Shown piece after piece: positions 4,845 through 57,800 of a stretch of 64,000 nt of DNA. Made by a program: the position numbers and the translations under genes. Each line of letters opens with the position of its first letter. Within the stretch, counting starts at the first letter, position 1. Source of the DNA: Mobula hypostoma (Eukaryota); NCBI RefSeq assembly GCF_963921235.1, contig NC_086097.1, positions 165,604,001 through 165,668,000 on the forward strand, in the 5' to 3' direction. The notes beneath the pieces are model-generated. The model was not told where the DNA came from. It saw nothing but the letters and a program-made list of their open reading frames with translations, and ran no database searches.

Positions 4845-5689
4845 AGATAGATAGATAGATAGATAGATAGACAGATAGATATACTTTATTAATCCCAAGG
4901 GAAATTTGGTTTCGTTACAGCCGCACCAACCAAGAATAGAGCGTAAATATAGCAATACAAAAAACCCCAACAATCAAACAACAAAATGCAAACTATGCCA
5001 GATGGAAAATAAGTCCAGGACTTATAAGACCAGTCTATTGACCCAGGGTGTCTGACCCTCCACGGGAGGAGCTGCACGTTCGATGGCCACAGGCAAGAAC
5101 GACCTCCCGTGCCGCCAGTGTTGTATCACGGTGGAATGTGGCCGAAGTCCAACAGTAAAAAGTTCAGTATCCAGTCTGCAAACACGTTCCTCGATCGTAA
5201 TATACTCCGGATTGCACCATCCGTTGTTAAGCAGATCAGTAAGCTCGAAACTCCTTTACGCTTACCGCTCTCAGTGTACTTCCGGTCAGCCGGAACAGTA
5301 TTACCCACCGAACTCCTCTTCTCCAAAAGTCTCTGTTGTCTCAACCCGGTCCTCTTTCCTCGGCTTTGTGATTCCCTTCTGCGTGTTTTCCTCCGGATTT
5401 CAGCAGGGGTGTCCACCGCTTGCTAAACCGGCCGGGATTTGCTGGTCCGTGAAATACACAATGCGACCTTGCTTCAGTCCCGCGTGTCGGGATGTAACCA
5501 ATTCCAGCGCTAAAGAAAACCCAAATAAAACTCTCTCTACCAGCATGTTAGAGAGGGTGCAGCTTCGACATGTTACCGTGAGAAAAACAAAATACAAAAA
5601 TAACGTAAATTAAAAAGTAAGAAGAAGAAAGTAAAAGAATAGTTCGGAACGGCTGTACCAGGCTGCATGCACGACCGGCGCATGCGCAC
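4845..5689 (-). mobile_element. Internally deleted non-autonomous Rex1/Babar-like LINE derivative with a (TCTA)n tail
   Basis: Minus strand: Arg-rich N-terminus (RRKTRRR..RGKRTG), APE fragment (ADRKYTESGKRKG; NNGWCNPEYITIEERVC..ELFTVGLRPH) fused to the RT C-terminal RSFLPVAI, AATAAA, then a (TAGA)n tract at 4844-4880. Confidence 0.7.
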
Positions 5690-5870
5690 TTTCCCTCCAT
5701 TATCAGATTTCTGGGGGGACTTCCGGTAGCGCTCATGGAGTGAAGTCGCGTTCTTGACTCGCTCCATTACCTCTGAGTTTTTTCTCTCTATGGTCAGCTA
5801 TACTTTAATTAACTATTAAGGCATCAATTTTTACAATACTTTGAATTAAACTGAATTCTCTGACAATTGG

Positions 5871-6770
5871 ATGATACTGAGATCGGCTATGTCTAAGAAC
5901 GGGAAAGACGGCAAGGATGGTAAACCTCCGGTTAAACCGAAAGCTACGGATCTCCCTCCGACTGAATCACCGGTGACTTTGGAAGCTATATCGGAGTTAA
6001 TTCAGAGGGAAATTTCAACCTCTGTTAGGGAGATGATTCGTACAGAAATTATGGGCTCTGTTAAAGACCTGATTCATATGGAAATCTCAACTAAGTTCCA
6101 GAAAATTGCCGATTTAATTGATAAGATGCAAACATGTATTGCGGAACATCAGTCGGCTATATCTGGTCTTCAAAAATCCGCGCAACAAAGTGAGCTTAAG
6201 ATGGGGAAAGTCGAAGAAACAATTAATGTAATGAAGAAGAAACTTGACTTTTTGACTTTTAAAAACTCTGACTTGGAATCTAGAATGCGACGGCAGAATT
6301 TACGAATGATTGGCGTCAGGGAAGCCGTGGAAGCTAACAACCCTATGAAATATTTTTCCCAACTTTTAAAAGATGCATTCCCTACTGTATTTCCTGACCA
6401 ACCACCGCTACTGGATCGTGTTCACAGAATCCCATCATACTCGTCTAGGTCAGATAGACCTAGGCATGTTATCTTACGTTTTCATTACTTTCAAGACAAG
6501 GAGAGACTGTTTCGATTCGCTCGATCTAAAGGTTTCATTGATTTTTCGGATCTTAAGTTCCGATTCGTGGAAGATTTCAGTAAACCAATCTGGGACCAAC
6601 GGGTCCGTTACAGATCCGTGATGTCGGAATTCTATAAGATGGATTTAAGACCAGCGCTGCTGTACCCTGCACGTCTAAGGATTCGCATGTTAGATGGAGC
6701 TCTTCGTTTTTTTGATTCTCCATCGGATGCCCAGAGTTATCTGGATCAACTTTCATCTTCAACATCTTAA
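5871..6770 (+). CDS. L1 ORF1p (coiled coil, RRM and CTD; Transposase_22-type)
   Basis: 299-aa ORF with L1 ORF1 motifs DLESRMRRQNLRMIGVRE, DRVHRI, PRHVILRF, EDFS, LYPARLRI. An alternative ATG is at 5889. Confidence 0.92.
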   Translation: MILRSAMSKNGKDGKDGKPPVKPKATDLPPTESPVTLEAISELIQREISTSVREMIRTEIMGSVKDLIHMEISTKFQKIADLIDKMQTCIAEHQSAISGLQKSAQQSELKMGKVEETINVMKKKLDFLTFKNSDLESRMRRQNLRMIGVREAVEANNPMKYFSQLLKDAFPTVFPDQPPLLDRVHRIPSYSSRSDRPRHVILRFHYFQDKERLFRFARSKGFIDFSDLKFRFVEDFSKPIWDQRVRYRSVMSEFYKMDLRPALLYPARLRIRMLDGALRFFDSPSDAQSYLDQLSSSTS

Positions 6771-7491
6771 TTGCCTTTTTTTAATTTTCTCCGTTGATCG
6801 GAGGCTGTGAATTGGTTGGTTTTAACTTTTCTGTGCCCTATTTGGGCAGAAAAGTTTACTTTTGATTTCTTAATATGGCTGCTAAACTTTCTTTTTAACT
6901 GCGTCATTTCTTTCTTTTCCCAGGGGATTCTGGGTGGTTACTTCCCTTTTGTCATCTTACGTATTTCCTGTGCGGCCTTAAATTTTGTAGTTTTTTTTAA
7001 ATTTTATTCTGTTTTGCTTTTTATAATCATTTTATGTTAATAATCCTATTTTTTTTGTTGCTGTGTCTATTCATGAGTTTGAGGTTTATTGTGGTTTTTT
7101 TTTAATATATACTTTCCGGCTTTTGTTCTGTTCTGTGTGTATTTTAATTGAGCTAACTTTTTTTTACTTATTTTTTTTACTGTTTTACAATTAGCTGATC
7201 CTTTTCATATTTATACCTTTTTTTTAGGGAGCGTATACCGGAAGTCATGGGGGTAGTTTTAGCGCTTGCTTCTTTCTGGCGGGTCTGCTTTAGATTTCGC
7301 CTTGGGGTCCTGGGGTGGGGGGTGGTGGGAGGGGCTTCACGTTTTAGTTTGTTTCTCTTTGGGCTATATACATTATTGAAGTATTGGTTACGTCCTTTTC
7401 CCCGGTATCTTTTGTATGTTCTGTTTCCTCTCCGGGTCTGTGGGTCGCGCCTATTGTCAATCCTCCTTGTTATGGGTTGACTTTAGGATTT

Positions 7492-10400
7492 ATGGAGTCT
7501 ATTATTAATTTTGTCTCCTGGAATACTAATGGTCTTAATCATCCTATTAAAAGGAAAAAAGTTTTTAAAGTGTTCCGGAGACTTAAAGCACAAATTTTAT
7601 TTTTACAAGAGACCCATGTACGGAGGGGGGACAGACTACGTTTTTTCAAATTTTGGAAGGGACAACAATTTCATTCGAACTCCAATGCTAAGATTCGAGG
7701 CGTCTCTATTTTTATAGACTCCTCAGTTACTTTTATACAACAGGATATTATCTCTGATCCGAATGGTAGATTTTTATTGGTTAGTGGTTTATTATTTAAT
7801 AAAAAAGTAGTTTTGGTTAATGTTTATGCTCCTAATATGGATTGTCCGGAATTTTATAAATCATTGTTTGATCAGTTTCCGAATTTGAACGAGTTTTCAT
7901 TGATTTGGGGCGGAGATCTTAATACCTGTTTATCTCCAGCTTTGGACCGTTCGGATCCTTTACGGACTTTACCTAATAAATCTGCAAATTTGATTAATTT
8001 TTTCCTTTCTGATTCTGGGTCGACGGACATTTGGCGTTTTCTGCATCCTCAGGAAAAAGATTTTTCCTTCTTTTCACATGTTCATCATTCCTATTCAAGA
8101 ATTGATTATTTTTTCATTGATTCTCGTCTCATTCCTTCAGTGATTAAATGTGATTATGATTCTATAACCATTTCGGATCATGCTCCACTTAAGCTTTCTA
8201 TTAAAATTATGGCCAATATACCAAACAATAGACAATGGCGTTTTAATTCGCTGTTGCTTCAGGACTCGGACTTTGTTAATTTTATGAATGAACAGATTGA
8301 GCTTTTTTTTACAATTAACCATACAGAAGATATTTCGGTTAACACTCTTTGGGACACTTTTAAAGCCTATATTCGGGGTCAGATTATTTCGTATTCCGTT
8401 GCTTTGAGGAAGAAACAGAAGCAGGAGGAGATGGTAATTGTGGACAAGATTAAAGAAATTGATAAGAAATATGTTATGGCTCCTTCTGAGGAGCTATACA
8501 AACAAAGAACTGAACTTCAAATGGAACACAGTTTACTACTCTCGTCCTCGATTGTAAACCAATTAAAGAAAACAAGAAGTGATTTTTATGTTCACAGTGA
8601 TAAAATTGGCAAGCTGCTGGCTAATCAATTGAAATCTAATTATGTTAAATCTCAAATCAATCAGATTTATAACCAAAATGATCGATTGATATTGGATCAT
8701 GTGGGGATTAATCAAACCTTTTGTGATTTTTATTCTTCTTTATACCAATCAGAGTCTCCTCGAGATTCTAAATATATGAATGATTTTTTAGATAAGTTAG
8801 ACTTCCCTCTGATTTCACAGGATATGTCTTCTTTATTAGATACTTCCATTACAATGGATGAGATTAAGAATGTTATTTTTTCTATGAATCTGGGGAAAGC
8901 TCCTGGCCCTGATGGGTTTACCGTTGAATTTTATAAATGTTTTGCTTCTTTATTGATTCCTTGGCTCTATAAGGTTTTTGAGGCTTCTTTGAAACTTGGT
9001 AAACTTCCGGAATCTTTTAATAGAGCATCAATTTCTTTAATACTAAAGAAGGATAAAGACCCTGCTCAATGTGCATCTTATAGACCAATATCTTTATTAA
9101 ATGTTGATTCTAAAGTTTTTTCTAAGTTATTAGCAAATAGACTAGAAAAAGTACTTCCTTCTATTATTTCGGAAGACCAAACGGGTTTTATTAAAGGTCG
9201 TTACTCTTTTTATAATATTCGTACATTGTTAAATATCGTTTATACTCCCTCACAAAATGTTCCTGAGTGTGTTATTTCTTTAGATGCCGAGAAAGCTTTT
9301 GATAGAGTAGAATGGCCTTATTTATTTAAGGTGCTTGAAATGTTTAATTTTAGCTTGAAATTTATATCCTGGATTAAACTGTTATATTACTCCCCTGTAG
9401 CCTCGGTTCGTACTAACTCCTTAAACTCACCTTTTTTTCCTCTCTTTCGTGGTACTCGACAAGGCTGTCCTCTTAGTCCCCTATTATTTGATATTGCATT
9501 AGAACCTCTTGCAATTGCTATTCGAGAATCTTTAAATATTACTGGGATAACTCGGGGATTAAAGTCCCATAAATTATCACTCTATGCTGATGATTTACTT
9601 TTATATATTTCTAATCCTGAGAGATCCATTCCTGCTGTTTTAGAGTTATTAGCACAATTTGGTCTTTTCTCAGGTTATAAATTAAATCTTAGTAAGAGTG
9701 AACTTTTTCCGATTAATAAACATCTTCCCTTATATTATAAATTTCCATTTAAATTGATTAATAATTACTTTTCATATCTTGGGATTAAAATTACTTGTAA
9801 ACATAAAGATTTATTTAAGACTAACTTTTTACCATTAATAGACCATATTACTCAACTTTCATCTAAATGGTTTCCCTTATATTTAACTTTGATTGGTCGT
9901 ATTAATGCAGTTAAGATGTTTTTTTTGCCAAAATTTTTATATGTGTTTCAGGCATTACCAATTTTCGTTCCTAAATCTTTTTTTGATAAAGTTGACTCTA
10001 AAATTTCTTCATTTATTTGGCAGAACAAGAATCCGAGACTGGGTAAAATACATTTACAGAAAGCTAAGAGAGATGGAGGTTTAGCATTACCTAACTTTAG
10101 ATTTTATTATTGGGCTATTAATATTCAACATATGAAATTTTGGTTACTTGACCGGGACATACTATTTATTCCTAAATGGGTAGCATTGGAATTACAATCT
10201 GTTCAGGGTTATACACTTGGTTCTATTTTAGGTTCCTCTCTTCCTTTTGATTCGAAACGTCTTAAGCAGGTCTCTAACCCGATAGTTAAATATGCTTTGC
10301 GCATTTGGTTTCAATTCAGAAAATTTTTTGATCTTAATCAATTCGGGTTAGCGATTCCTATTTTAGGTAACATATTTTTTCCTCCCTCTTTTACGGATCG

Positions 10401-11268
10401 CGCTTTTCAAACTTGGAAGACTAAGGGTATTTTACGGTTTTTGGATTTATTTTTAGATGGTTCCCTTATGTCTTTTGAACAATTATCTAATAAATATAAC
10501 TTATCAAGAATACATTTTTTTAGATATTTACAAGTTAGAAATTTCCTAAGTACTATACTTACTTCCTTTCCAATGCTTCCTCCTATATATATTTTAGATT
10601 CGATAATTAACCTTAATCCATGTCAGAAAGGTGCATCGGCTATGATTTATAATATTATTATGAAACTTAGGAAAGCTCCATTTGATAAGATTAGGGTAGA
10701 TTGGGAACAGGAATTGGGGCTTACCATTTCTGTGGATGATTGGGGGCAGATTTTACAATTAGTTAATACTTCCTCTATTTGTGCTAAACATTCTCTAATT
10801 CAATTTAAAGTGGTTCATAGAGCACATATGTCCAAAGATAAGTTAGCGCGTTTTTACTCGCATATTAATCCTTTCTGTGATAGATGTTCGGGGCAGATAG
10901 CCTCTTTAACTCATATGTTTTGGTCTTGCCCTACTTTGGAAACTTTTTGGAGAGATATTTTCAATATTATTTCTAAGGTATTAAATATAGATATCTCTCC
11001 TCACCCTATTACTGCTATCTTTGGACTACCTAAAATTTCTAGTAATCTTTCCCCTTCAGCCCGTAGAATGATTGCATTTCTTACTTTAATGGCGAAAAGA
11101 TGTATTTTACAACATTGGAAAGAGCTTAATGCTCCAACTACCTTTTTTTGGTTTTCTCAGACGATTTTATGTTTGAATCTGGAGAAAATTAGAAGTAACC
11201 TTTATGATTCTTCATTTAAATTTGAACAGATTTGGGGACCTTTTATTCGATATTTTCATTTAATGTAA
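7492..11268 (+). CDS. L1 ORF2p (APE endonuclease, reverse transcriptase, CCHC knuckle), 1258 aa from ATG 7492
   Basis: EN motifs SWNTNGLN, LQETH, GGDLN, SRIDY, SDH; RT motifs KAPGPDG, YRPISLLN, SLDAEKAFD, RQGCPLSP, YADD, YLGI; C-terminal CDRC-x8-HMFWSC; no stops. Confidence 0.95.
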   Translation: MESIINFVSWNTNGLNHPIKRKKVFKVFRRLKAQILFLQETHVRRGDRLRFFKFWKGQQFHSNSNAKIRGVSIFIDSSVTFIQQDIISDPNGRFLLVSGLLFNKKVVLVNVYAPNMDCPEFYKSLFDQFPNLNEFSLIWGGDLNTCLSPALDRSDPLRTLPNKSANLINFFLSDSGSTDIWRFLHPQEKDFSFFSHVHHSYSRIDYFFIDSRLIPSVIKCDYDSITISDHAPLKLSIKIMANIPNNRQWRFNSLLLQDSDFVNFMNEQIELFFTINHTEDISVNTLWDTFKAYIRGQIISYSVALRKKQKQEEMVIVDKIKEIDKKYVMAPSEELYKQRTELQMEHSLLLSSSIVNQLKKTRSDFYVHSDKIGKLLANQLKSNYVKSQINQIYNQNDRLILDHVGINQTFCDFYSSLYQSESPRDSKYMNDFLDKLDFPLISQDMSSLLDTSITMDEIKNVIFSMNLGKAPGPDGFTVEFYKCFASLLIPWLYKVFEASLKLGKLPESFNRASISLILKKDKDPAQCASYRPISLLNVDSKVFSKLLANRLEKVLPSIISEDQTGFIKGRYSFYNIRTLLNIVYTPSQNVPECVISLDAEKAFDRVEWPYLFKVLEMFNFSLKFISWIKLLYYSPVASVRTNSLNSPFFPLFRGTRQGCPLSPLLFDIALEPLAIAIRESLNITGITRGLKSHKLSLYADDLLLYISNPERSIPAVLELLAQFGLFSGYKLNLSKSELFPINKHLPLYYKFPFKLINNYFSYLGIKITCKHKDLFKTNFLPLIDHITQLSSKWFPLYLTLIGRINAVKMFFLPKFLYVFQALPIFVPKSFFDKVDSKISSFIWQNKNPRLGKIHLQKAKRDGGLALPNFRFYYWAINIQHMKFWLLDRDILFIPKWVALELQSVQGYTLGSILGSSLPFDSKRLKQVSNPIVKYALRIWFQFRKFFDLNQFGLAIPILGNIFFPPSFTDRAFQTWKTKGILRFLDLFLDGSLMSFEQLSNKYNLSRIHFFRYLQVRNFLSTILTSFPMLPPIYILDSIINLNPCQKGASAMIYNIIMKLRKAPFDKIRVDWEQELGLTISVDDWGQILQLVNTSSICAKHSLIQFKVVHRAHMSKDKLARFYSHINPFCDRCSGQIASLTHMFWSCPTLETFWRDIFNIISKVLNIDISPHPITAIFGLPKISSNLSPSARRMIAFLTLMAKRCILQHWKELNAPTTFFWFSQTILCLNLEKIRSNLYDSSFKFEQIWGPFIRYFHLM

Positions 11269-12060: not shown

Positions 12061-12273
12061 GACACAAACAAGAGAAAATCTGCAAATGCTGGAAATCCAA
12101 GCAACACACACAAAATGTGGAGGAACTCAGCAGACCAGGCAGCAGCTATGGAAAAAAGTAGTCGATGTTTCGGGCTGTGACCTGCTGGAGGGTCTTGGCC
12201 TGAAACGTCAACCGTATTTTTTTTCCATAGATACTGCCTGGCTTGCTGAGTTCCTCCAGCATTTTGCGTGTTG
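12061..12273. mobile_element. Short fold-back (inverted) PLE terminal-repeat insertion
   Basis: Two inverted arms of the PLE 3' repeat; 12-bp TSD ATTAAAATTCCT (12049-12060 / 12274-12285). Confidence 0.85.
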
Positions 12274-14739: not shown

Positions 14740-15140
14740 TCATCCTAACATTACACCTAGGAACTTACTCCATCTGCCCACTCTTCCCCCAGTGAATTAT
14801 CCACCCACCTCACTTGCCTTACTTCATTCCATACTCCACCTTCCTTTCCCATCAAATTCCATCGCCTGCAGCCTTTGCTGCCTCCACCTCTCACCTCCCA
14901 GCCTCTGTTGGTATTTCCACTCGTTTCATTTGCCTATCACTCTCCACATCTGGATCCACCTTTTGCTTGCCCCACCTATACTAGCTACCTCCCCTCTATA
15001 ATAATCAATCCAGATGAAGGGTCTCAAGGTGAATGCCAACTGCTCATTTCTCTCCACAGACGCTGCCTGACCCATTGAGTTGCTCCAGCATTTTGTTTAT
15101 TGTCAAGAACCATAGATCTGATTGCAGATTTGCAAATATA
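14740..15140 (+). mobile_element. Old PLE 3' terminal-repeat fragment
   Basis: Pyrimidine-rich tract followed by a degenerate gatgaagggtctc...gctgcctgaccc...ctccagcattttg motif. Confidence 0.6.
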
Positions 15141-16938: not shown

Positions 16939-17903
16939 CTACAAGTAGTAAAGGAAGCTATCATGTGACAGGTTACAAAACCACAAGTTTCACAAACAAA
17001 ATATGTACATCTTAATTAATTGACTGACTTGGAAGTTGAGTGGGAAAAATACATAACACTAGTACTGTTATTACAAGTGGTGTTTCTCCAGAGTCATACA
17101 ATTATCGTTATAAAAGGGATTTCAAAATGTTTTAATTATGATGTGGGAGAAGTTCAAATGCCACAACCTTCAAGCTGAGAAATGCACAATTAATAGATTA
17201 ATAGAATCTAACAAAGTAAATTGTGGAGACAGGAGATTGCAAATACTGGAATCTGAAGCAATAAACAAACCGCTGGAAGAACTCAGCAGGTCCGTGGGAA
17301 GGAAAACATTGACAGTTCAGGTCAAGACCCGACATTAGGACTGAGAGTTGAAAGGGAAGAAAGCCAAAATAAAGAGGGAGGAAGGGGTGAGGCAGGAACC
17401 AGTAAATGATAGATGGACCAAAGGATTGTGGAGGATGATGGACAAAAAGAGTCAGTCAGCAGGGGAAAAATTCCAAATCCTAATCAGGAAATAACAGGTA
17501 GTATGCCTGTGGCAAGGACTTGTACTTGGATCCAATGTGCATTTTCAACCTAAAAGCAGAAATCATTCGCCACAAACGAGTTACTAAGACAGCTCTCTAC
17601 AATTATCAATAATTAATATAGCATGATAGGGTCTTGGATGAGAGTTGAAAGAAACAAGAAAAATTGTTTAATTTGTGGACCAATTACACATAAAATAAGC
17701 AGTTTACAAACTTGGCTATTTGTATATGGAGACATATTACAAGATATAAATCAGCAGAGGGTTATCATCCTAATAAGCTTACATTTGAGGTAGGACAGAA
17801 GTTTGCATAGGTTCACACTCAAACAGAAAACCTCTGAATAAATGTTCTCAATGAGAACTAAAGCATTCAGTGAACCATTTGCAGAAAGAAGAAATAAAAA
17901 TAC

Positions 17904-27859: not shown

Positions 27860-28445
27860 TACAAACACAAGACACTGCAAATGCTGGTATATGGAATGAA
27901 AAGCAAACTACTGGAGAAGGTCAGCATGTTGAGTAACACCTATAGGTGGTTTCAGAACAAATAGCTGACATTCCCGGTTAAGACCCTGCATCAGGACTGA
28001 AAGTGAAGAGGGGAGATGTCCGATATAAAGCAAGGGAAAGGAGTGAGACAGGGACCAGTAACACAGAAAACACGGGAATCTCTCTCCTTTAATGGCTCCT
28101 AAAATCATCTTCCTTATTGGCTTCCAGCAATTGTAGCCTTTTTATCCCTATTCATTATCCTCCATCTCCACCTTCACCCTCCACTACCCACACCACCCCC
28201 AACGTGGCTCCATCAGATCCCTTCCCCCCGCCCTTGTCTGCCCATCACTCTCCTGCCTCTGTCTCCCAACTCCACTCATTTCCCTCCCTTACTTGGCTGC
28301 TTCTAATATCATCATCCCTCATACCATCTCAAATCCATCTCTTACCTTCAGGCCCAACTTGCCTCTCCTAACAGCAACACAACTCCTTTTTCCCCATTAG
28401 ATGCTGCTTGACTGGCTGAGTTCTTCCAATAGATTGTTTACTGCT
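27860..28445. mobile_element. Old inverted PLE terminal-repeat insertion
   Basis: Left arm actgcaaatgctgg...ccctgcatcaggactga is inverted relative to right arm ...gatgctgcttgactggctgagttcttcca. Confidence 0.6.
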
Positions 28446-36406: not shown

Positions 36407-36815
36407 CTTGCCCCCCTGGTCCTACATTTAAAACGCTCCGCACGCCCTGGTTGTATACATGAACGTGTGTGTCTCTACGAGACTAGCCGGACAACGCACA
36501 TTGCACCCGAGAAAAGGGCCCGCTGTCCCAGGGACTGAAGCACCAGAGCCGAGCAGAAAGGTGTATGAGCATTAGATTTGATATTTCCTTTTTATAAATA
36601 TATATGAAGCCTTTTAACATGAATAACTTTAATGAACATCTAATGATAACAGTGTAGTTCTTTTATAGACCAATAAGAGTCGTAATATCTCATGGAATAA
36701 TAGAAAACACAGGAACTGCTTAGCAGAATTCAGATTTCCAACACCCATTGTAATTCGCGCTAACATTTATGGGAATCAATCAGTGAAATTAGAGGAATCC
36801 TAATATGATTGAAAC

Positions 36816-36917
36816 CAGTCCTGATGAAGGGTCTCAGCCCAAAGCATTGACTGTTTATTCATTGCCATAGATGCTGCCTGATCTACTGAGTTCCTCCAGC
36901 ATTTTGTGTGTGTTTGC
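36816..36917 (+). mobile_element. 102-bp PLE repeat fragment beginning at the hammerhead motif, ~400 bp upstream of the PPP4R1 ATG
   Basis: 12-bp TSD TATGATTGAAAC (36804-36815 / 36918-36929); the insert begins cagtcCTGATGAagggtctc. Confidence 0.8.
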
Positions 36918-37754
36918 TATGATTGAAACGATTTTAATTGTTTTGGAGATTATATATGATAATTATATAGTCGCCCATCTTTGCCTATCTTAAGAAAATG
37001 AGGCCCCTCCTGGTGATAATACAGTGTTGTTGAGTAGAATAAACCAAAGAAGGCAATAGTAATACTTTAAGGATGACGTTTAGGGATACACAATAGAATA
37101 GGGGTGGAAGTCAAAATGGTTTCCTTAAGGGGAAATCTTGCGTGACAAATTTGTTGGAATTCTTTGAGGAAAAAAAAACATGTATGATAGAAAAGGACAG
37201 TCAGTCGATGCTGTTTACTTGGATTTTTATAGGGCCTGTGATAAGCTGCCACATATGAGGCTGCCAAACAACATTCAAGGGCATGGTATTACAGAAAAGA
37301 TACCAGAATGGATAGAAGACCGGCTGACTGGTAGGAAGTAAAGAATGGGAATAAAGGGCACCTTTTTTTAGTGGTGTTCCGCAAGGGTCAATGTTGGGTC
37401 AGCTACTTTTCATGTTGTATGTTAATAATCTGGATGATGGAATTGATGGCTTTGTTGTCAAATTTGCTGATGATACAAGGACAGGTGGAGGGGCAGGTAG
37501 TGTTGAGGAGGCAGAGGCTACGCAGAAGGACTTAGATTAGAAGAATGGGCAAAGATGGAGTAGCTGGAATACAGTGCCAGGAAGTGTGTGGTCATGCACT
37601 TTTTTAGAAGGAATAAATGCATAGACTATTTTCTAAATGGGGAGAAAATTCAAAAATCAGAGGTGCAAAGGGACTTAGAATCATTGTGCAGAATTCCCTA
37701 AAGGTTAACTTGCTGGTTGAGTCGGTGGTGAGAAAGGCAAATGGAATATTAGCA

Positions 37755-38736
37755 AACAACAGGAATTCTGCAGATGCTGGAAATTCAAGCAACATACATC
37801 AAAGTTGCTGGTGAACGCAGCAGGCCAGGCAGCATCTATAGGAAGAGGCGCAGTCGACGTTTCAGGCCGAGACCCTTCGTCAGGACTAACTGAAGGAAGA
37901 GTGAGTAAGGGATTTGAAAGGGGGAGGGGGAGATGCAAAATGATAGGAGAAGACAGGAGGGGGAGGGATGGAGCCGAGAGCTGGACAGGTGATAGGCAGA
38001 AGGGGATACGAGAGGATCATGGGACAGGAGGTCTGGGAAGAAAGACGGGGGGGGTGACCCAGAGGATGGGCAAGAGGTATATTCAGAGGGACAGAGGGAG
38101 AAAAAGGAGAGTGAGAGAAAGAATGTGTGCATAAAAAAGAGTAACAGATGGGGTACGAGGGGGAGGTGGGGCCTAGCGGAAGTTAGAGAAGTCAATGTTC
38201 ATGCCATCAGGTTGGAGGCTACCCATACGGAATATAAGGTGTTGTTCCTCCAACCTGAGTGTGGCTTCATCTTTACAGTAGAGGAGGCCGTGGATAGACA
38301 TGTCAGAATGGGAATGGGATGTGGAATTAAAATGTGTGGCCACTGGGAGATCCTGCTTTCTCTGGCGGACAGAGCGTAGATGTTCAGCAAAGCGGTCTCC
38401 CAGTCTGCGTCGGGTCTCACCAATATATAAAAGGCCACATCGGGAGCACCGGACGCAGTATATCACCCCAGTCGACTCACAGGTGAAGTGATGCCTCACC
38501 TGGAAGGACTGTTTGGGGCCCTGAATGGTGGTAAGGGAGGAAGTGTAAGGGCATGTGTAACACTTGTTCCGCTTACACGGATAAGTGCCAGGAGGGAGAT
38601 CAGTGGGGAGGGATGGGGGGGACGAATGGACAAGGGAGTTGTGTAGGGAGCGATCCCTGCGGAATGCAGAGAGAGGGGGGGAGGGAAAGATATGCTTAGT
38701 GGTGGGATCCCGTTGGAGGTGGCGGAAGTTACGGAG
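37755..38736 (-). mobile_element. Young 5'-truncated Penelope-like element (probably Neptune clade) with an open GIY-YIG endonuclease region
   Basis: ORF 38173..38757 has a Cys linker CKRNKCYTC and GVIYCVRCSRCGLLYIGETRRRLGDRFAEH..HF..E..LQPDGMN; 16-bp TSD AAATGGAATATTAGCA (37739-37754 / 38737-38752). Confidence 0.93.
37851..37888 (-). ncRNA. Minimal type I hammerhead ribozyme motif in PLE terminal repeat
   Basis: Minus strand reads UAGUC-CUGACGA-AGGGUCUCGGCCU-GAAA-C-GUC|GACUG. Confidence 0.7.
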
Positions 38737-39649
38737 AAATGGAATATTAGCATTCATTTTGAGAGAACTAGAATATAAAAAGCAAGGATGTACTGTAATG
38801 CTGAGGCTTTACAAGTCACTGTTCAGATCACATTTCAAATATTGTGAGCATTTTCAGGCTCCCTTTCTAAGAAAGGATGAGCTAGCATTGGAGAGGGTTG
38901 AGGGGAGGTTTATGAGGATGATTCCAGGAATGGAAAGGTTAACATATGAGGAGCATTTGATGGCTCTGGGCCTGTACTCGCTGTACTTTGGAAGAATGAG
39001 GGGAATCACAGAGAAACCTACCGAATATTGAAAGGCCTAGGTAGAGTGATCATGGAGAAGATGTACAGACTCAGAAAAGCTATCCCTTTAGAACAGAGAT
39101 GAGGAGGCATTTCTTTAGCCAGAGGGTGGTGAATCTGTGGAATTCATTGCCACAGAGAGCTGTGGATATATTTAAATCAGAGGTTGATAGATTCTTGATT
39201 AATAAGGGCATCAGAGGTTACGAGGAGAAGGTAGATAATGGGCTGAGAGGTAAAATAAATCAGCCATGATTGAATGATGGAGCACGCTTGGTGGGCTGAA
39301 TGACCTAATTGTTTCCCTATCTCTTACGGCTTTGTGATCTTATTTCTATATTGAAGCAGTGCATGGCTTCGGGAAGGGAACTTGCATGTATCTGCTTGGA
39401 CCTTTATGTCCTTTTTGTCAGTAATGTTAGATCCTGATGTTTTTGATCCAAGGTTGTTCGGAAGTCAAGAATGAGGTACAAAACTTGTTGCTTACTACAG
39501 TTTATTAAGCATAACAAGAATGAAATGAGGATGAAGGAAAAGATGGCGGGTAGCAAAAGAAAAAGAACCTAATGGTGGGGGGAAGAACAAAAGAGGGTGA
39601 CGGGGAGAGGGAATGCAATTCTAACCACTTTGCCTTTGTAATGGGGGGC

Positions 39650-44337: not shown

Positions 44338-44602
44338 TAATTCCACCCTTCTTATAACAATCATGAATAAGCTAAATACCTTGCTTCTGTGCTTTAACAA
44401 CTTTGATAAAATGCAGAATACCTGCTGCTTGGTTTCTGACATTACAACAGTGTCTATACTTCAACTTGTACTCTGAAAGGCAGTGAATAAATACAAGAAT
44501 GTTCTTTTCTTTTAACAAAAGAAAACTCATAAAAGCATTAGCAACGCACATCAAAGTTGCTGGTGAATGCAGCAGACCAGGCAGCATCTGTAGGAAGAGG
44601 TG

Positions 44603-44640
44603 CAGTCGACGTTTCAGGCCGAGACCCTTCGTCAGGACTA
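44603..44640 (-). ncRNA. Minimal type I hammerhead ribozyme motif
   Basis: Core CUGACGA...GAAA-C-GUC with stem I UAGUC/GACUG. Confidence 0.7.
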
Positions 44641-45627
44641 ACTGAAGGAAGAGTGAGTAAGGGATTTGAAAGTTGGAGGGGGAGGGGGAGATCCAAAATG
44701 ATAGGAGAAGACAGGAGGGGGAGGGATAGAGCCAAGAGCTGGACAGGTGATAGGCAAAAGGGGATACGAGAGGATCATGGGACAGGAGGTCCGGGAAGAA
44801 AGACAAGGGGGGGAGGACCCAGAGGATGGGCAAGAGGTATATTCAGAGGGACAGAGGGAGAAAAAGGAGAGTGAGAGAAAGAATGTGTGCATAAAAATAA
44901 GCAACAGATGGGATACGAGGGGGAGGTGGGGCCTTAGCGGAAGTTAGAGAAGTCGATGTTCATGCCATCAGGTTGGAGGCTACCCAGACGGAATATAAGG
45001 TGTTGTTCCTCCAACCTGAGTGTGGCTTCATCTTTACAGTAGAGGAGGCCGTGGATAGACATGTCAGAATGGGAATGGGATGTGGAATTAAAATGTGTGG
45101 CCACTGGGAGATCCTGCTTTCTCTGGCGGACAGAGCGTAGATGTTCAGCAAAGCGGTCTCCCAGTCTGCGTCGGGTTTCGCCAATATATAAAAGGCCACA
45201 TCGGGAGCACCGGACGCAGTATATCACCCCAGTCAACTCACAGGTGAAGTGTCGCCTCACCTGGAAGGACTGTTTGGGGCCCTGAATGGGTAGCCTCCAA
45301 CCTGATGGCATGAACATCGACTTCTCTAACTTCCGCTAAGGCCCCACCTCCCCCTCGTACCCCATCTGTTGCTTATTTTTATGCACACATTCTTTCTCTC
45401 ACTCTCCTTTTTCTCCCTCTGTCCCTCTGAATATACCTCTTGCCCATCCTCTGGGTCCCCCCCGCCCTTGTCTTTCTTCCCGGACCTCCTGTCCCATGAT
45501 CCTCTCGTATCCCCTTTTGCCTATCACCTGTCCAGTTCATGGCTCTATCCCGCGCCCTCCTGTCTTTTCCTATCATTTTGGATCTCCCCCTCCCCCTCTC
45601 AAATCCCTTACTCACTCTTCCTTCAGT

Positions 45628-45665
45628 TAGTCCTGATGAAGGGTCTCGGCCTGAAACGTCGACTG
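45628..45665 (+). ncRNA. Minimal type I hammerhead ribozyme motif
   Basis: TAGTC-CTGATGA(45633-45639)-AGGGTCTCGGCCT-GAAA(45653-45656)-C-GTC|GACTG; predicted cleavage after C45660. Confidence 0.72.
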
Positions 45666-48600
45666 CGCCTCTTCCTAGAGATGCTGCCTGGCCTGCTGCG
45701 TTCACCAGCAACTTTGATGTGTGTTGCTTGAATTTCCAGCATCTGCAGAATTCCTGTTGTTTGTTTTTCATAAAAGCATTAAATTGTCATTTTCAGTTTT
45801 AGCAGTTATAGAAATAACAGTGCCTCAAAATTTGAATTAAGTCCCATGTTTGTAGGAAATTCAGGAGTTAAATAGAAACATTAGTTGGAATGCTACCTTG
45901 ACCATACTTTTTTTCCACCCTGCAACCTGCTTGGACTCCATTCCACTATCACAGTTCCTTTGCTTTCCATCACATTTGCTGCAATGATAAGATATTGGCC
46001 CAGGTGCCTCTTCCTTGCCACATAATGGACAAAGCCCTTGGCCATACCTCATCTATTTTGTACACCTCTGTTTTCACCACCTCTCCTCTTGAGCGGAATT
46101 CCCCTAATCCTTGTCTTTTATCCTACTTCCAGCAGATCATCCTTCACAATTTTCAACAGTTCCAATAAGATTCTATATTTCTGTAGATCAGATCTATACT
46201 TCCCTTTCGGCTTTTCAATGAATCTATTGTATTGATGACTCCCTGTTCCGTTTCCAGCAACCATTCCCCATCAAATGAACCTTTCTTATTCAAAACCTCC
46301 TCTTTCACCTTCTACTTTCTCACAAGCTACAGACCCAAACGGTCTTTTCACCTCTGAACTAATTATCACCATCCCCACCAACTAGGCTATGCTCTCTCCT
46401 TGTTACTACCATTGGGCAGGAGGTACAAAACCCTTAGGTCCTATACCACCAGCTTCAGGAACAGTTATTAGCCTACAACCATCAGGCTCACGATCGAGTG
46501 TGGATAACTTCACTCACTTCAACACTGACCTGAATCCACAAGGTGCAGACTGACCTTGAGGCATTCAGCAACTCATATTCTCAGTGTTATTTACTTCTTT
46601 AAATTATTTGCACAATTTGTTTTCTTTTGCATATTGGTTGTTTGTCAGTCTTTGTTATTTACAGTTTTTCATAAATTCTATTGTTTTTTTTAATTTTCCT
46701 GTAAATGCTGCAAGAAAATGACATATCTGTGTTTTGAAAATAAATTAATTTTGACTTTGAAGTGTGTACTGCATTCAGTGTTCACATTTTCTATTTCAAA
46801 GGTGACTCCACCTCAGTCAAGAAGATTTTGGAAGAAATGCTGATCAGGTGGGTAGGAAAGTGGTCAGTGTAGTTCAGAGGTGTTTAAGGTAAAACATTTA
46901 CAAGGGGCAAACTACATGGGGATTCTGCAGGAAAGAAGGAGAAAATTACTTATGTGTACGTAGAGATATAGCAAGTCGAGTATATGCTTGTGACGTTACT
47001 GCAGGTCAGTTTTTCATTGTACCTGTGCATTTACAGTAAGTATTTGTGCATAAAGCAGTAAACCCAACTTGAGAAAGCAGAGAAACAAAACAAAAATACT
47101 GAGCAGGAGCAGGCCTTCTGGCCCATTAATTCTGCATCACCATTCAAATGATCATAACTGATCTGGATACAGGGATCCAAAGTACCTGTGTTTTTGCTCT
47201 ATGGCATTATATCTAGCTTGAACTTGTCATAACCTGCAGTACAATAAAAAGGACGATGGTAACGTGAGCAGGTGCTTTTGTTTCTATTTTGTCCTTACAT
47301 CTTTTCTTTTTTCTCATGAATATTTATACCAAAACATTAACCCATTTTGCTTTAGCAGATAATATTTTGACATTATTTTTCTTGGCATAATTATTTTCAA
47401 TCTTGGTTCAGGGTCCTTGTGCAAGAAACAAAGAAAGTTAGCATGCAGGTATAAAAAAGGCAAATGGAACATTGTCCTTTATTGCAGACACGGCAGAGAG
47501 GATGGAATGTAGAAGTCTCTTAGTCAGTCCCTCTCTCTCTCTCACTCTCACTCTCACTCTCTCACCCCAAGATTGTGAATGTGCAGTAGGTCTATACAAG
47601 TCACACAACATTGTGGGCTGAATGGCCTGTACTGTCTGTATTCAATACAATGCAATATATGGACTCAGTGAGGAAGTGCAGTTGCAGAAGTTCAGCCTTA
47701 TTCTAATGAATAGCAGAGTAGACTTGAAGCTCTGTATCTACTGTTTTCCGAGGCAGCCACATTTTTAGCTTCACATGCATTGCAAGCTTCCTTGGTACTA
47801 AACCCCATCTAGTGGTCCAACACTAGAAGCATAACTGCAATCATAAATGGCTTGCAGTGAGAAGCTTTGCCAAGTATGAGAAAATCTGGCGTAGTTCTTC
47901 TTCAGATGGAGATGCATAATACATTAAATATAATGTTTCAAAATTCTAATCTTTCTAAGAGTTAAACAGACAAGTAACCCTTTTGGCTGGACACAGGAAG
48001 TGCTAAGTGTGTGTAATGTTTCTGATTTAATCAGTTACGCATGGGCTTTCAAATGATTTGAACTGTCTGGGCACCTTTCCAGTTCTGAATGAGTCCTTTG
48101 CAGCAGCACAGGTGTAGGGATGTTTGTACTTGACCCGAGGAAAATTTTCAGCATCTTCTCTTTACATGCTAACTATTGATACAACCTGATGTCATCTACA
48201 TTGAATTCTCCAATCTCCGATAATGTGTCCCCCTCTGTACCTTTGCCCTCTCCTCCTGATCTACCCAGTTCCTCCTACAACCATCATGGCCTCCCCACAT
48301 CACCCTGTTCCTTTTTCCTCCTCCATCTGCCCACAGTCCACACATTCCTCCCACTGGATCCCTTTACCTGACTCTTCTCGTCTATCCTCCCCACCTGCCT
48401 GACTTGATTCTATGCTCTGCCTTCTTTTCCGATAAGATTAAATACCTGAAGCCCTTTTTTGTCTCCACCCATCACCTCCCAGCTTCTGCCGCTATTTCCA
48501 CTCTTCCCACCTCCATCTCCCTATTGCTCCGCCTCACCTGCCCCTCCCTTTCCCCTCACATCTTTACGCTAACTATCTCTCCTCTGTTGATGCAGGGTAT

Positions 48601-50216: not shown

Positions 50217-53200
50217 CATAAGACATAGGAGCAGAATTAGGCCATTCAGCCTATCGAAGCTGCTCTGCCATTCCATCATGGCTGATCACAGATCCCACTC
50301 AACCCCATACACCTGACTTCTCGCCATATCCTTTGATGCTCTGACCAATCAGGAAACTATCAACTTCCACCTTAAATACAGGTTTCCCCTGCCATCCGAA
50401 GGTAGAGCGTTCCTATGAAACAGCTCATAAGCCGAAATGTCGTAAAGCGAAGAAGCAATTACCATTTATTTATATGGAAAAATTCTGTGAGCATTCGCAG
50501 ACCCAAAAATAACCTACCAAGTCATGCTAAATAACACATAAAACCTAAAATTACAGTAACATATAGTAAAAACAGGAATGATATGATAAATACACAACCT
50601 ATATAAAGTAGAAATACTTCTCCACAATCATTACTGCACTGTTCTCCGTAGCGAAAATCTCACGCAAGCGCTGTTGGCAAAAACACGGCGCAAGCGCTCT
50701 CCAGTAACCTTTAAGCTATGAAGCTGCCAAATCATACCAAATAACACGTAAAAATACACAGCCTATATAAAGTAGAAATAATGTATGTACAGTGTAGTAT
50801 CACTTACCGGAATTGGTTCAGCGCTGAGCACACGGATGATGGTGTGTTAGGCTGAGTCGGAGTTTGGGTGGTCCAGTGGCCCCCACCCTCCAGGCCGCCA
50901 AGCGATACATTGCTGTGAAGAACGCAGGGGTCCAGCGGTAGCTGGGAGGCACACAGCACATCTTTAAGAAAAAAGCCGAAATAAACATGCTAATTAATTA
51001 GGTGCCGCCCGGCACATAATTGTCGGCCCAGATCAGTGCCAATTTCCGATTGCATCATCTCTGATCTGGGCCGACAATTATGTGTCAGCGGCGCCTAATT
51101 AATTAGCATGTTTATTTCGGCTTTTTTCTTGAAGATGTGCTGTGTACTTCCTGGCTACCGTTGCATTCTCCATGAATCGATATCTGTCTGTGGCCTGGGG
51201 GTTGGGGTGGTGGGACACCGGGGTGTCATCTCGTCATCGTCTGTTTCCATTAGAGCAGGCAGCTCATCTTCTTCTATCTCTGCCCGCCTCAATGTCGAAG
51301 GTCAAGGTTCGTCGTCTGCTGTGGCTGATGTGGAAGGCTTGCTTGACAGCTGAGCCTCACGCATTTTTCTATCACACAGTTCTTTGTAAGGACTCAAACC
51401 ATCCTGCAAATATCCCCTAAACCGACATACCCTTTCAAAATTAAAGTCGTACTTTATCATTACTGATTCGGTTTCGATTGTTATCCTTTTTTCTTCCAAT
51501 TGCATCAGCTCTTCATCTGTCAGTTCTTGGTCATGGGATGCCAAAACCTCTTCAACATCATGTTCGTCAGCTTCCACAAGCCAAACTCATGTTGTCCTTA
51601 CTTCGTTCACCACGATCAAAACGCTTAATTATGTCTAGTTTTACGCTAAGTGTAACACCCTTACGAGCTCTTTTAGGCTTTTCCGATACCTTAGAACTCA
51701 TCTTGCAAACGGCTGCTCACAGGCATATGTTTAAGCAATGCCGGCGAGAATGCAGTTCTGAATCCGGGGAGAGTGGCTGCTCGGGGGTGCGCTGCCTTTT
51801 ATCGCGCGCTGATTTTTTTTCGTAACAGTGAAAACACCTACTGAAAGTGAAAACAGGGTACTAATGTAGGTCTTTCATAACAGTGAGGTTTCGTAAAGCG
51901 AACGTTTGAAAAGCGGGGGACACCTGTATACCAACAAACTTGGCTTCTACCGCAGTCTGTGGTAGAGCATCCCACAGATTAATTACTCTCTGGCTACAAA
52001 AATTCCTCCGTTCTGAAAGGTTGCCCCTCACTTTTGAGGCTGTGTCCTCCAGTTCTGGTTGCTCCCACCATGGGAAACGTCTTCTCCATATCCACCTTAT
52101 CAATATCCAGTCCTTAAGATCTCCTTGCATTCTTCAAAATTCCAGTGAGTACAGGCCCAAAGCTGCCAAATGCTCCTCATATGTTAATCCCTTCATTCCC
52201 GGAATAATCCTCATGAACCTCCTCTGGACTCTCTCCCAATGACAACATATCCTTTCTGAGCTATGGGGCCCAAAACTGTTGACAATACTCCAAGAGCGGC
52301 CTGACTAATGTCTTATAAAGGCTCAGAATTATCTCCTTGCTTTTATATTCCCCTTGAAATAAACGCTAACATTGAATTTGCTGCCTTTACTACAGACTCA
52401 ACCTGTAAATTAACCTTCTGGGAGTCTTGCATGAGGACTTCTAAGTCCCTCTGCACCTCTGATGTCTGAACCTTCTCCCCATCTAGATAATCGCACTATC
52501 ATACATTTCCGAACACTGGATTCCATCTGCCACTTTTTTTGCCCATTCTAACAATTTGTTTCGACCTTGCTGCAATCGCATTGCTTCCTCAGCACTACTT
52601 GCCCTTCCACCAACCTTGTATCATCCACAAACTTTGCCAAAAGCTATCAATTCCATTAAAAAAACACTGACAAACAATATGAAAAGTAGTGGTCCCAATA
52701 CTGACCCCTGAGGAACATCACTAGTCACTGGCAACCAACCAGAAAAGGTCCCCTTTATTCCCACTCACTGCCTCCTGCCTGTCAGCCATTCCTCTTCCAT
52801 GCCAGTATCTTTCCTGTAACACTATATCTTGTTAAACAGCCTCGTGTGTGGTGCCTTTACAAATGCCTTCTGAAAATCCAAGTAAATGACATCCACTGCC
52901 TTTCCTTTGTCCACCGTACTTGTTACTTTCTTGAAGAACTCTAACAGATTTGTCAGGCAAGATTTCCCTTTACGGAAACCATGCTGATGTTGACTCATTT
53001 TATCATTAGTCTCCATCCTTAATAATAGACTCCAACACTTTCCCAGCCACTGAGGTTAGGCTAACTGGCATATCATTTCCTTTCTTTTGCCTTCTTCCCT
53101 TCTTAAAGAGTGGAGTGACATTTGTAATTTTCCAGTCTCCCGGGACCATGCCAGAATTAAGTGATTCTTAAAATGCATCCGTCAACTCTTCAGCAACCTT

Positions 53201-54811: not shown

Positions 54812-57800
54812 TATTAGGGAAGGTTTGCTAGCGCTGCTCCGGGGTGTTTAAACTAGATTTGCGGGGGAGGGGAACCAGAGTGTTAGAGCAGATAGTGAGG
54901 TGGAGGAGGATAAAGGTCATGCGAGAACTGCAAGTATAGTGCATGGAGTAAAGCCAGATCTAACGTATAAAGAGGCTTTGAGGAAAGAGAAGCAGAATAA
55001 AGGGTGTAAAGGTAGTAAGGTAGAAGGGCTAAAGTGCGTGCACTTCAATGCAAGAAGCATCAAGAACAAAGGTGATGAACTGAGGGCTTGGATACATACA
55101 TGGAATTATGATGTAGTGGCCATTACAGAGACTTGGCTGGCACCAGGGCAGGAATGGATTCTCAATATTCCTGGATTTCAGTGCTTAAAAAGGGATAGAG
55201 AGGGGGGAAAAGGAGAGGAGGGATGGCATTACTGGTCAGGGATACTATTACAGCTACAGAAAGGGTGGGTAATGTAGCAGGATCCTCTTTTGAGTCAGTA
55301 TGGGTAGAAGTCAGGAACAGGAAGGGAGCAGTTACTCTATTGGGAGTATTCTATAGGCCCCCTGGTAGCAGCAGAGATGCCGAGGAGCAGATTAGAAGGC
55401 AGTTTTTGGAAAGGTGCAAAAATAACAGGGTTGTTATCATGGGTGACTTTAATTTCCCTAATACTGATTGGCACCTGATTAGTTCCAATGGTTTAGACGG
55501 GGCAGAGTTTGTTAAGTGTGTCCAGGACAGATTCCTGTCACAATATGTTGACAGGCCGACTAGGAGGAATGCCAGCAACACACATCAAAGTTGCTGATGA
55601 ACGCAGCAGGCCAGGCAGCATCTCTAGGATGAGGTACAGTCAACGTTTCGGGCCGAAACCCTTCGTCAGGACTCGGCCTGAAACGTCGACTGTACCTCAT
55701 CCTAGAGATGCTGCCTGGCCTGCTGCATTCACCAGCAACTTTGATGTGCGTTGCTTGAATTTCCAGCATCTGCAGAGTTCCTCATGTAGGGGGAATGCCA
55801 TACTAGATCTAGTATTAGGAAACGAACCGGGTCAGGTCACAGATCTCTCAGTGGATGAGCATCTGGGGGACAGTGACCACTGCTCCCTGGCCTTTAATAT
55901 TATCGTGGAAAAGGATAGAATCAGAGAGGACAGGAAAATTTTTAATTGGGGAAGGGCAAATTATGAGGCTATAAGGCTAGAACTTGCAGGTGTGAATTGG
56001 GATGATGTTTTTGCAGGGAAATGTACTATGGACATGTGGTCGATGTCTAGGGATCTCTTGCTGGATGTTAGGGATAAATTTGTCACAGTGAGGAAGATAA
56101 AGAGTGGTAGGGTGAAGGAATCATGGGTGACTAGTAAGGTGGAAAATCTAGTCAGGTGGAAGAAGGCAGCATACATGAGGTTTAGGAAGCAAGGATCAGA
56201 TGGGTCTATTGAGGAATATAGGGTAGCAAGAAAGGAGCTTAAGAAGCTGAGAAGAGCAAGAAGGGGGCATGAGAAGGCCTTGGCAAGTAGGGTAAAGGAA
56301 AACCCCAAGGCATTCTTCAATTATGTGAAGAATAAAATGGTGACAGGAGTGAAGGTAGGACCAATTAGAGATAAAGGCGGGAAGATGTGGAGGTTGTGGA
56401 AATGAGTGAGGTCCTCAATGAATACTTCTCTTTGGTATTCACCAATGAGAGGGAACTTGATGAAGGTGAGGACAATATGAGTGAGGTTGATGTTCTGGAG
56501 CATGTTGATATTAAGGGAGAGGAGGTGTTGGAGTTGTTAAAATACATTTGGACAGATAAGTCCCTGGGGCCTGATGGAATATTCCCCAGGCTGCTCCATG
56601 AGACGAGGGAAGAGATTGCTGAGCCTCTGGCTAGGACCTTTATGTCCTCATTGTCCATGAGAATGGTACTGGAGGATTGGAGGGAGGTGAATGTTGTCCC
56701 CCTGTTCACAAAAGGTAGTAGGGATAGTCTGGGTAATTATAGACCTGTGAGCCTTACGTCTGTGGTGGGATAGCTGTTGGAAAAGATTCTTAGAGATAGG
56801 ATCTATGGGCATTTAGAGAATCATGGTCTGATCAGGGACAGTCAGCATGGCTTTGTGAAGGGCAGATCGTGTCTAACAAGCCTGATAGAGTTCTTTGAGG
56901 AGGTGACCAGGCATATTGATGAGGGTAGTGTAGTGGATGTGATCTACATGGATTTTAGTAAGGCATTTGACAAGGTTCCACGCGGTAGGCTTATTCAAAA
57001 AGTCAGAAGGCATGGGATCCTGGGAAGTTTGGCCAGGTGGATTCAGAATTGGCTTGCCTGCAGAAGGCAGAGGGTGGTGGTGGAGGGAGTACATTCAGAT
57101 TGGAGGATTGTGACTAGTGGTGTCCCATAAGGATCGGTTCTGAGACCTCTGCTTTTCGTGATTTTTATTAATGACCTGGATGTGGGGGTAGAAGGGTGGG
57201 TTGGCAAGTTTGCAGACGTAACAAAAGTTGGTGGTGTTGTGGATAGTGTAGAGGATTGTCGAAGATTGCAGAGAGACATTGATAAGATGCAGAAGTGGAC
57301 TGAGAAGTGGCAGAAAGAGTTCAACCCAGAGAAATGTGAGGTGGTACACTTTGGAAGGACAAACTCCAAGGCAGAGTACAAAGTAAATGGTAGGGTACTT
57401 GGTAGTGTGGAGGAGCAGAGGGATCTGGGGGTACATGTCCACAGATCCCTGAAAATTACCTCACAGGTGGATAGGGTAGTTAAGAAAGCTTATGGGGTGT
57501 TAGCTTCCATAAGTCGAGAGATAGAGTTTAAGAGTCACGGGGTAATGATGCAGCTCTATAAAACTCTGGTTAGGCCACACTTGGAGTACTGTGTCCAGTT
57601 CTGGTCGCCTCACTATAGGAAGGATGTGGAGGCATTGGAAAGGGTACAGAAGAGATCTACCATGATGCTGCCTGGTTTAGAGAGTATGGATTATGATCAG
57701 AGATTAAGGGAGCTAGGGCTTTACTATTTGGAGAGAAGGAGGATGAGAGGAGACATGATAGAGGTATACAAGATATTAAGAGGAATAGATAGAGTGGACA

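Follow-up and report, generated by a model that had tools for sequence, protein, structure and literature searches.

The locus analysed here is a 64,000-nucleotide window of the Mobula hypostoma genome (NC_086097.1), and all positions given below are those of this window. The 5′ part of PPP4R1 occupies 3665-36406 on the minus strand, with coding exons running from 36145-36095 down to 3796-3665. Its likely start-codon exon (36406-36400, -), one of 11 loose pattern matches, lies about 260 bases above exon 2. A young-looking L1-type LINE sits antisense within a PPP4R1 intron (5850-11268, +); its ORF1 (306 aa) is open and its ORF2 frame runs for 1306 aa without interruption. Immediately ahead of ORF1, a CpG-rich region (5028-5613, +) that contains two open frames, of 132 and 185 aa, is probably its 5′ UTR. 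Both the gene and the region upstream of it hold insertions of a Penelope-like element (PLE), whose terminal region carries a hammerhead ribozyme motif.

The PLE insertions are of several ages and layouts. A single 5′-truncated insertion with two arms on opposite strands occupies 44541-45767 and is flanked by a 14-bp exact target duplication (44527-44540 / 45768-45781); its tail-less minus arm (~45289-44541) and its plus arm (~45290-45767), which has a tail of ~35 bases, join across about four shared bases. The longest young copy (37753-38738, -) lies between 16-base exact repeats at 37739 and 38737 and contains the RT-EN linker CX4CX2C, the GIY-YIG domain (stop codon 38173-38175), a pyrimidine-rich spacer, the hammerhead and the tail. 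A short fold-back insertion on both strands (55575-55786) has a 14-bp duplication with one mismatch and nine exact bases (55561, 55787). Its minus arm begins at stem I of the motif and is tail-less, and its plus arm begins in the stem II loop, without CUGANGA, and has the tail. Both 37753-38738 and 55575-55786 lie within CR1-type LINE relics. An older fold-back of the same layout (12063-12273, both strands; motif 12177-12214, +), situated in a PPP4R1 intron, has an exact 12-bp duplication (12049, 12274), as does a solo insertion of ~100 bp (36816-36917, +; duplication at 36804 and 36918), which has a single base ahead of the A of stem I and terminates at the tail-less end. This solo insertion lies in the presumed promoter of PPP4R1, ~410 bases ahead of the likely start codon. 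An older-subfamily copy (1643-2583, -) is 70% identical to the young copy and has a broken GIY-YIG frame; no target duplication was found around it. Finally, three PPP4R1 intronic copies consist of a decayed motif and the downstream module (15008-15115, +; 17242-17343, -; 27879-27999, -).

All clear target duplications in the window measure 12-16 bases, and in a chance control 12 bases were reached in one of 300 random flank pairs and 14 in none. In all three fold-backs one arm is ~35 bases shorter and the tail is confined to one arm; this difference in arm length is the PLE tail. No window insertion has two motifs on the same strand, and a cis dimer is thus impossible within any of them.

The motif at 45628-45665 (+) is a minimal type I hammerhead with an intact core, recognised by sequence reading, a core pattern and a structural descriptor. 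In order, it comprises UAGUC of stem I, CUGAUGA (C3 at 45633), an unpaired A45640, stem II with its loop (GGGU-CUCG-GCCU, including the wobble G10.1-U11.1), GAA, the palindrome ACGU (45656-45659), C45660 at position 17, and GACUG of stem I′. The cut site is predicted 3′ of C45660. This agrees with the anatomy given in an earlier note on this DNA, which had omitted only the unpaired A45640. The structural descriptor found exactly four copies in the window, 45628(+), 44603(-), 37851(-) and 55637(-), which are the four intact cores the note had located. The copy at 44603-44640 (-) lies in the inverted, tail-less arm of the insertion that holds 45628, so that the four copies represent three insertions. 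That at 37851-37888 (-) belongs to the longest young copy, and that at 55637-55674 (-) has G10.1-C11.1 together with the UUCG loop and GUU triplet already noticed.

Across these four young copies, which belong to insertions ~95% identical to one another, the core CUGANGA...GAAA...NUH has no mismatch in 44 positions. Stem I has 4-5 bp and stem II 4 bp, the topology is type I, and both stems appear in the predicted monomer fold. The extra base between positions 9 and 10.1 (A45640) has equivalents in the other intact copies, and positions 15.1-16.1 form the palindrome ACGU, with loop 3 absent, in four of four. The partner of G10.1 at position 11.1 is C in 55637 and U in the three youngest copies, and the G10.1-C11.1 variant accounts for 20-31% of depth in aligned contigs. 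The core pattern matched five times in the window against 1.09 expected, and at least five matches occurred in none of 100 shuffles. The fifth match (52558-52592) was rejected by the structural descriptor, as it lacks the stems.

Sequence comparison identified six decayed motifs in the window, in addition to two arms that start within stem II. They lie at 1740-1777 (-), 12177-12214 (+), ~15008-15044 (+), 17306-17343 (-), 27962-27999 (-) and 36816-36853 (+), the last with its core changed at 2 of 11 positions. Three of them had been listed before and do exist; those at 12177(+), 17306(-) and 27962(-) had been overlooked. A search with the Rfam hammerhead models, which the note had proposed as a check, gave no match at E≤10 in the whole window or in the 121 bases around the motif, as expected because the motif has no intramolecular stem III of its own. 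Matches to Rfam miRNA families in the window scored far under their gathering thresholds and were dismissed as fold-back artefacts. The source of these weak matches is a near-perfect inverted repeat of ~65 bp per arm with a short spacer at 50980-51130, which is probably part of a DNA-transposon relic.

The motif lies in the sense strand of the element, separated by a pyrimidine-rich spacer of ~290 bases from the stop codon of a GIY-YIG ORF. The GIY-YIG domain exceeded the Pfam cut-off in two of the four window ORF fragments scanned, and the linker CX4CX2C between RT and EN was found in the frame 38808-38173. A CX2-5CXXC linker is a hallmark shared by Neptune and Nematis elements (Craig et al., 2021; PMC8557442), and among vertebrates, according to a preprint, only Neptune and Poseidon PLEs occur. 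The closest homologue of the window ORF is a Mobula protein with 93% identity. Longer shark and ray homologues reach into the RT motifs, which were seen in homologues only, and RVT_1 stayed under its cut-off in one of them (P0005). No full-length ray ORF was present among 16 homologue matches, the longest being 522 aa. Another homologue (P0008) reads on into the hammerhead, in the same frame as 45330-45731. Pieces of the PLE ORF also occur in four ray gene models (P0003, P0004, P0010 and P0016, namely DIPK1C, mucin-2, CHID1 and neuromedin-U receptor 1), where they are exonisation or annotation artefacts. The expectation that the genome holds many copies was borne out, the number being very high: 200,237 contigs of one DNA run, possibly from the source of this genome, aligned to 548 bases of the element end, a figure that is not a copy count.

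Relatives of the element were sought in metagenomes, where 80 loci were fetched by protein homology alone (31-56% identity), 55 of them with at least 300 downstream bases. The same hammerhead architecture was found in sense, within 1 kb past the protein match, in 17 of the 80, and in nine loci the motif follows the protein match at exactly 107 bases. Other descriptor matches in these loci numbered five in antisense and one elsewhere in sense, and shuffled relatives gave none in each of 20 shuffles. An exact DNA pattern had no match in metagenome contigs. The commonest motif among the relatives is, letter for letter, the published Neptune minimal hammerhead ribozyme (min-HHR) of Acropora digitifera (Cervera and De la Pena, 2014; PMC4209133, Fig. 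S3/Table S1). The ray element is thus putatively of Neptune type, an assignment drawn from its linker and from this published motif in relatives 31-56% identical to it. Two further hammerheads were encountered in these loci. One, in L016 (~1990-2040, -), is a canonical-looking type I hammerhead with a 6-bp stem I and the stem III palindrome ACAGCUGU; it is retrozyme-like and sits 784 bases past the PLE match. The other, upstream in L062 (~2140-2185, +), represents another min-hammerhead family, whose palindrome is ACUAGU, and was set aside, having no tie to an intact ORF.

The relatives allow conservation of the motif to be compared with that of its flanks. A motif-blind set was formed from 33 loci that reach the ORF end, of which six were short, one was a duplicate and five had unalignable flanks, leaving 21. 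Divergence in these was 0.050 for the motif and 0.052 for its 12 core bases; the upstream flank reached 0.156 and the downstream flank 0.120, so that the motif varies about threefold less than its flanks. Column permutation gave p values of 0.0001 and 0.009, the certainty of which is overstated because rows and columns are related. Changes on both sides of a pair distinguish the ray from the relatives at three of seven pairs, among them two of the three pairs of stem I, where the changes are compensatory, in a comparison of four ray motifs with five hand-picked relative motifs that is in effect one contrast. One subfamily of relatives (L001, L004, L023, L047 and L064) has U4C in the core and keeps the remaining motif.

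Within the ray, the picture depends on what is compared. In the six old window copies the core has 15 mismatches in 66 positions and the downstream sequence 55 in 300, and four intact cores among young copies have a chance probability of ~0.21. No pair among eight has changed on both sides in the ten window copies. Once inserted, the motif is under no selection and decays neutrally, its core being lost as fast as the flank. Between the majority sequences of the old and young ray copies, differing columns amount to 0/11 in the core, 3/36 in the motif, 13/50 downstream and 14/25 upstream. Excess conservation, which the note had made a test of its reading, is therefore absent from old inserted copies and clear between subfamilies and lineages, and the conservation between lineages indicates that the motif is selected in active ones. 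Four sequencing runs were also aligned to 37753-38300, as contigs only, which cannot show RNA ends, strand or level. Among the 40 variant sites listed, with 69 more beyond the list, one falls in the 38-nt motif, where it restores G10.1-C11.1; against the 2.8 that the length of the motif would predict, this is by itself no significant shortfall. Listed loose contig ends cluster at 37887 (three of four runs) and 37851 (one of four), the outer ends of stem I, which means that similarity between subfamilies ceases where the motif ceases.

The position of the copies relative to PPP4R1 bears on whether they serve the host. The note had suggested that some copies lie in gene introns, and this holds for five decayed motifs in PPP4R1 introns; all four intact motifs are found ahead of the likely start codon, at distances of 1.4-19 kb. 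Three of the intact copies are on the PPP4R1 strand, at spacings of 6.8 and 11 kb, and could on that ground be imagined as active or domesticated ribozymes that cut transcripts of the locus in cis or trans. This is highly improbable, given that every intronic copy is core-broken with at least two core changes, that the intact copies are simply young, and that no further PPP4R1 exon placing them in pre-mRNA was found upstream of them in the window. The local copies are most likely dead, inactive passengers without a partner in their own insertion, and genome screens that count intact cores will mostly tally such young dead copies.

Taken together, the descriptor, the GIY-YIG domain, the homologues and the published motifs uphold the note's identification of a minimal type I hammerhead of a PLE. 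With high probability, the whole explanation is that the motif is a minimal type I hammerhead in the pseudo-LTR (pLTR) of a ray Neptune-type PLE whose local copies are inactive passengers. The anatomy, the place after the GIY-YIG ORF, the conservation between lineages and the truncated, neutrally decaying copies flanked by target duplications are observed. The steps proposed for a master element draw on the literature, since neither the window nor the 80 related loci contained a full-length element or a same-strand tandem pair of pLTRs.

How such a motif might cut is suggested in part by folding at 37 °C. The predicted ground state of the 45628 monomer retains stems I and II and pairs G5-G8 with C15.2-C17, burying the core, and the probability of an open-core monomer is 0.011. 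The strand-swapped active dimer is predicted at -11.5 kcal/mol, whereas two monomers come to -19.6 and the best co-fold to -26.7; these energies include neither tertiary contacts nor Mg2+. Co-folding, another check that had been proposed, thus did not predict the active dimer as the ground state. Cleavage of a hammerhead as a dimer has reportedly been described by Lunse et al. For the Schistosoma min-HHR, the monomer is inactive, and dimers and trimers cleave at a low level (PMC4209133). The motif of the Anolis Poseidon element cleaves only with the element's protein, and ribozyme mutants of this element, the one reconstituted PLE, left insertion unchanged (Frangieh et al., 2024; PMC11167929). 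The folding result fits this published weak or inactive behaviour.

The note had gone further, inferring that the family depends on dimeric self-cleavage. In its strongest form, motifs of a tandem transcript would cut each other and release unit-length or circular RNA as the required template. The loop-less palindromic stem III ACGU, kept from the ray to Acropora-type relatives, is in keeping with this, as are the Schistosoma dimers and trimers, a review statement on dimer cleavage (PMC6765202) and about four arms in the relatives that begin within three bases of the predicted cut. Against it, 10 of 10 motif-bearing arms in the window retain sequence 5′ of the cut and none of 12 arms starts at G1.1, the active dimer lies above the predicted ground state, and in Anolis the mutants insert unchanged and RNA-seq ends did not fall at the cut (PMC11167929). 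An obligate role for dimeric cleavage is consequently doubtful, and the supposed dependence does not emerge from the copies seen here, among which no insertion has a same-strand pair. As a hypothesis for an active master copy it is reasonable, and dimer cleavage in such an element is plausible.

In an active tandem element, transcription would begin at stem I of the upstream pLTR or slightly ahead of it, giving an RNA with a second motif in the downstream pLTR. The two motifs would swap strands, ACGU pairing with ACGU to form stem III, and each would be cut after C17. By itself the dimer cut would be slow, and the protein of the element would probably be required to refold the core-burying hairpin. 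The cut may well be a control or trimming step that insertion does not require, because most window copies keep an uncut motif.

The starts of the insertions offer a further record of the template. In the solo copy at 36816 a single base precedes the A of stem I, and this A is itself the first base of the motif-bearing arm of 55575-55786. For the arm of 12063-12273 microhomology blurs the start, which is no more than a few bases away from the same A. That these three short arms start at or near stem I and not at the cut suggests that uncut RNA from there was the template. Inversion joints at 37886 occurred in contigs of three runs (2, 2 and 1) among 15 joints listed of 218. In the relatives, stem I is the starting point of one inverted arm, and about four arms, inverted or solo, have their first base within three bases of the predicted cut, the latter suggesting that cut RNA may sometimes serve as template.

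Upstream of the motif, 15 of the 20 relative loci listed have a TATA-like box 37-40 bases before C3, with CCAAT further upstream, and the corresponding position in the ray copies holds a less pronounced AT-rich spot. A possible core promoter, or alternatively a splice acceptor, can be proposed at 45596-45632 (+), with the AT-rich spot ~31 bases before and the sequence YYANWYY placing +1 at A45629. YYANWYY is found at -4 in six of seven copies that have native upstream sequence, evidence that is weak because stem I and C3 already dictate five of the seven letters. From the arm starts and these sequences we infer that the RNA may have its first base at stem I or immediately ahead of it, and that the short copies may be cDNAs of its uncut 5′ end.

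The adjacency of the motif to the TATA-like box in these relatives also raises the question of whether it acts without catalysis, as a promoter or initiator, an ORF start or a binding site for the element's protein, its hammerhead appearance being a relic. The core-burying hairpin predicted as ground state in both the ray and a relative, the U4C change in one subfamily and the Anolis ORF that begins within the motif (PMC11167929) would all suit such a role. On the other hand, the core letters stay fixed although both partners of stem pairs change, a pattern that neither a DNA element nor a reading frame would call for, and other PLE hammerheads do cleave, with rescue of C3/G8 (PMC11167929). 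A non-catalytic role is on balance quite improbable.

Splicing provides another account of the same upstream sequence. The AG before stem I would be a splice acceptor, the ribozyme would form on spliced RNA and the spacer would be a retained intron. A branch-like motif, a pyrimidine tract and an AG do lie ahead of stem I, other subfamilies have a donor-like GTAAT at the ORF stop (in the loose-end consensus and in 1643-2583), and the Penelope element of Drosophila virilis is a precedent. The young subfamily has no GT there, however, the AG is retained in short copies, and none of the 15 joints listed of 218 is a clean GT-AG skip, two of the runs being guessed to be RNA and possibly DNA. Splicing at this AG is accordingly judged unlikely.

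Transcription from stem I, combined with the fold-back layout, allows a joint reading that is offered as a tentative possibility. Neptune RNA would start at the first base of stem I, from a TATA-like box ~31 bases upstream with an initiator-like +1, so that the ribozyme would be a cap-proximal switch removing the first 32 bases. Solo and fold-back insertions of 100-140 bases would each represent the uncut 5′ end copied in full, with reverse transcription begun at the two internal RT start sites. At the fold-back joint, the cDNA end opposite stem I would anneal to the near-identical stem II of a second cDNA. Twin priming in L1 is a precedent for a fold-back joint formed through annealing, and a literature search found no paper that brings together Penelope, twin priming, inverted copies and the hammerhead. 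If this reading is true, thousands of copies would record in the genome the ratio of uncut to cut template, an in vivo read-out of PLE ribozyme activity. The family is of use as material for two questions, in vivo cutting by PLE ribozymes and its necessity for transposition: having a very high copy number and short insertions that record template 5′ ends, it would let this be counted from one genome assembly.

The kind of motif is a known one: PLE min-hammerheads are on record for animals ranging from corals to reptiles, and one has been published for the nearest family. That of the Acropora digitifera Neptune element is likewise of type I, with CUGANGA and the extra base, GAAA, short stems I and II, a loop-less ACGU and a GUC or GUU triplet, and it too sits in the pLTR downstream of the GIY-YIG ORF; the ray differs in stem I (AGUC/GACU) and in the loop (CUCG or UUCG) (PMC4209133). 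Several PLE families published there share the G10.1-U11.1 of three young ray copies. Table S1 and Fig. S3 of that paper list no cartilaginous fish, although its other supplements may hold one, and a literature search found no Penelope or Neptune hammerhead ribozyme in a shark or other elasmobranch. The conserved core letters are common to the ray motif and the Rfam hammerhead families, from which it differs in having no intramolecular stem III.

At the level of the element, Poseidon PAc of Anolis carolinensis also has a hammerhead followed by two 3′ ends ~35 bases apart, its tail being the stretch between two internal RT start sites. Its insertions come from uncut RNA, and its both-strand priming fits the fold-back layout (PMC11167929). 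PAc belongs to the Poseidon clade, without the Zn-finger linker, and protein-assisted cleavage was measured in it (PMC11167929). Canonical EN+ PLEs share with the ray copies the 5′ truncation, the adjacent inverted 5′-truncated copy and the tail at one end, but their partial tandem is absent from the window (PMC8557442). The hallmark inverted 5′ copy with a tail of 30-40 bases is represented by the three fold-back insertions, with the tail on one arm. Non-LTR retrozymes, reported from one chondrichthyan, carry a type I hammerhead derived from a PLE pLTR as well (bioRxiv 10.64898/2026.07.22.740005). These are defined by at least two consecutive tandem hammerhead units, and no window insertion has even one same-strand pair; retrozyme units are arranged head to tail, whereas the window copies are single or inverted.
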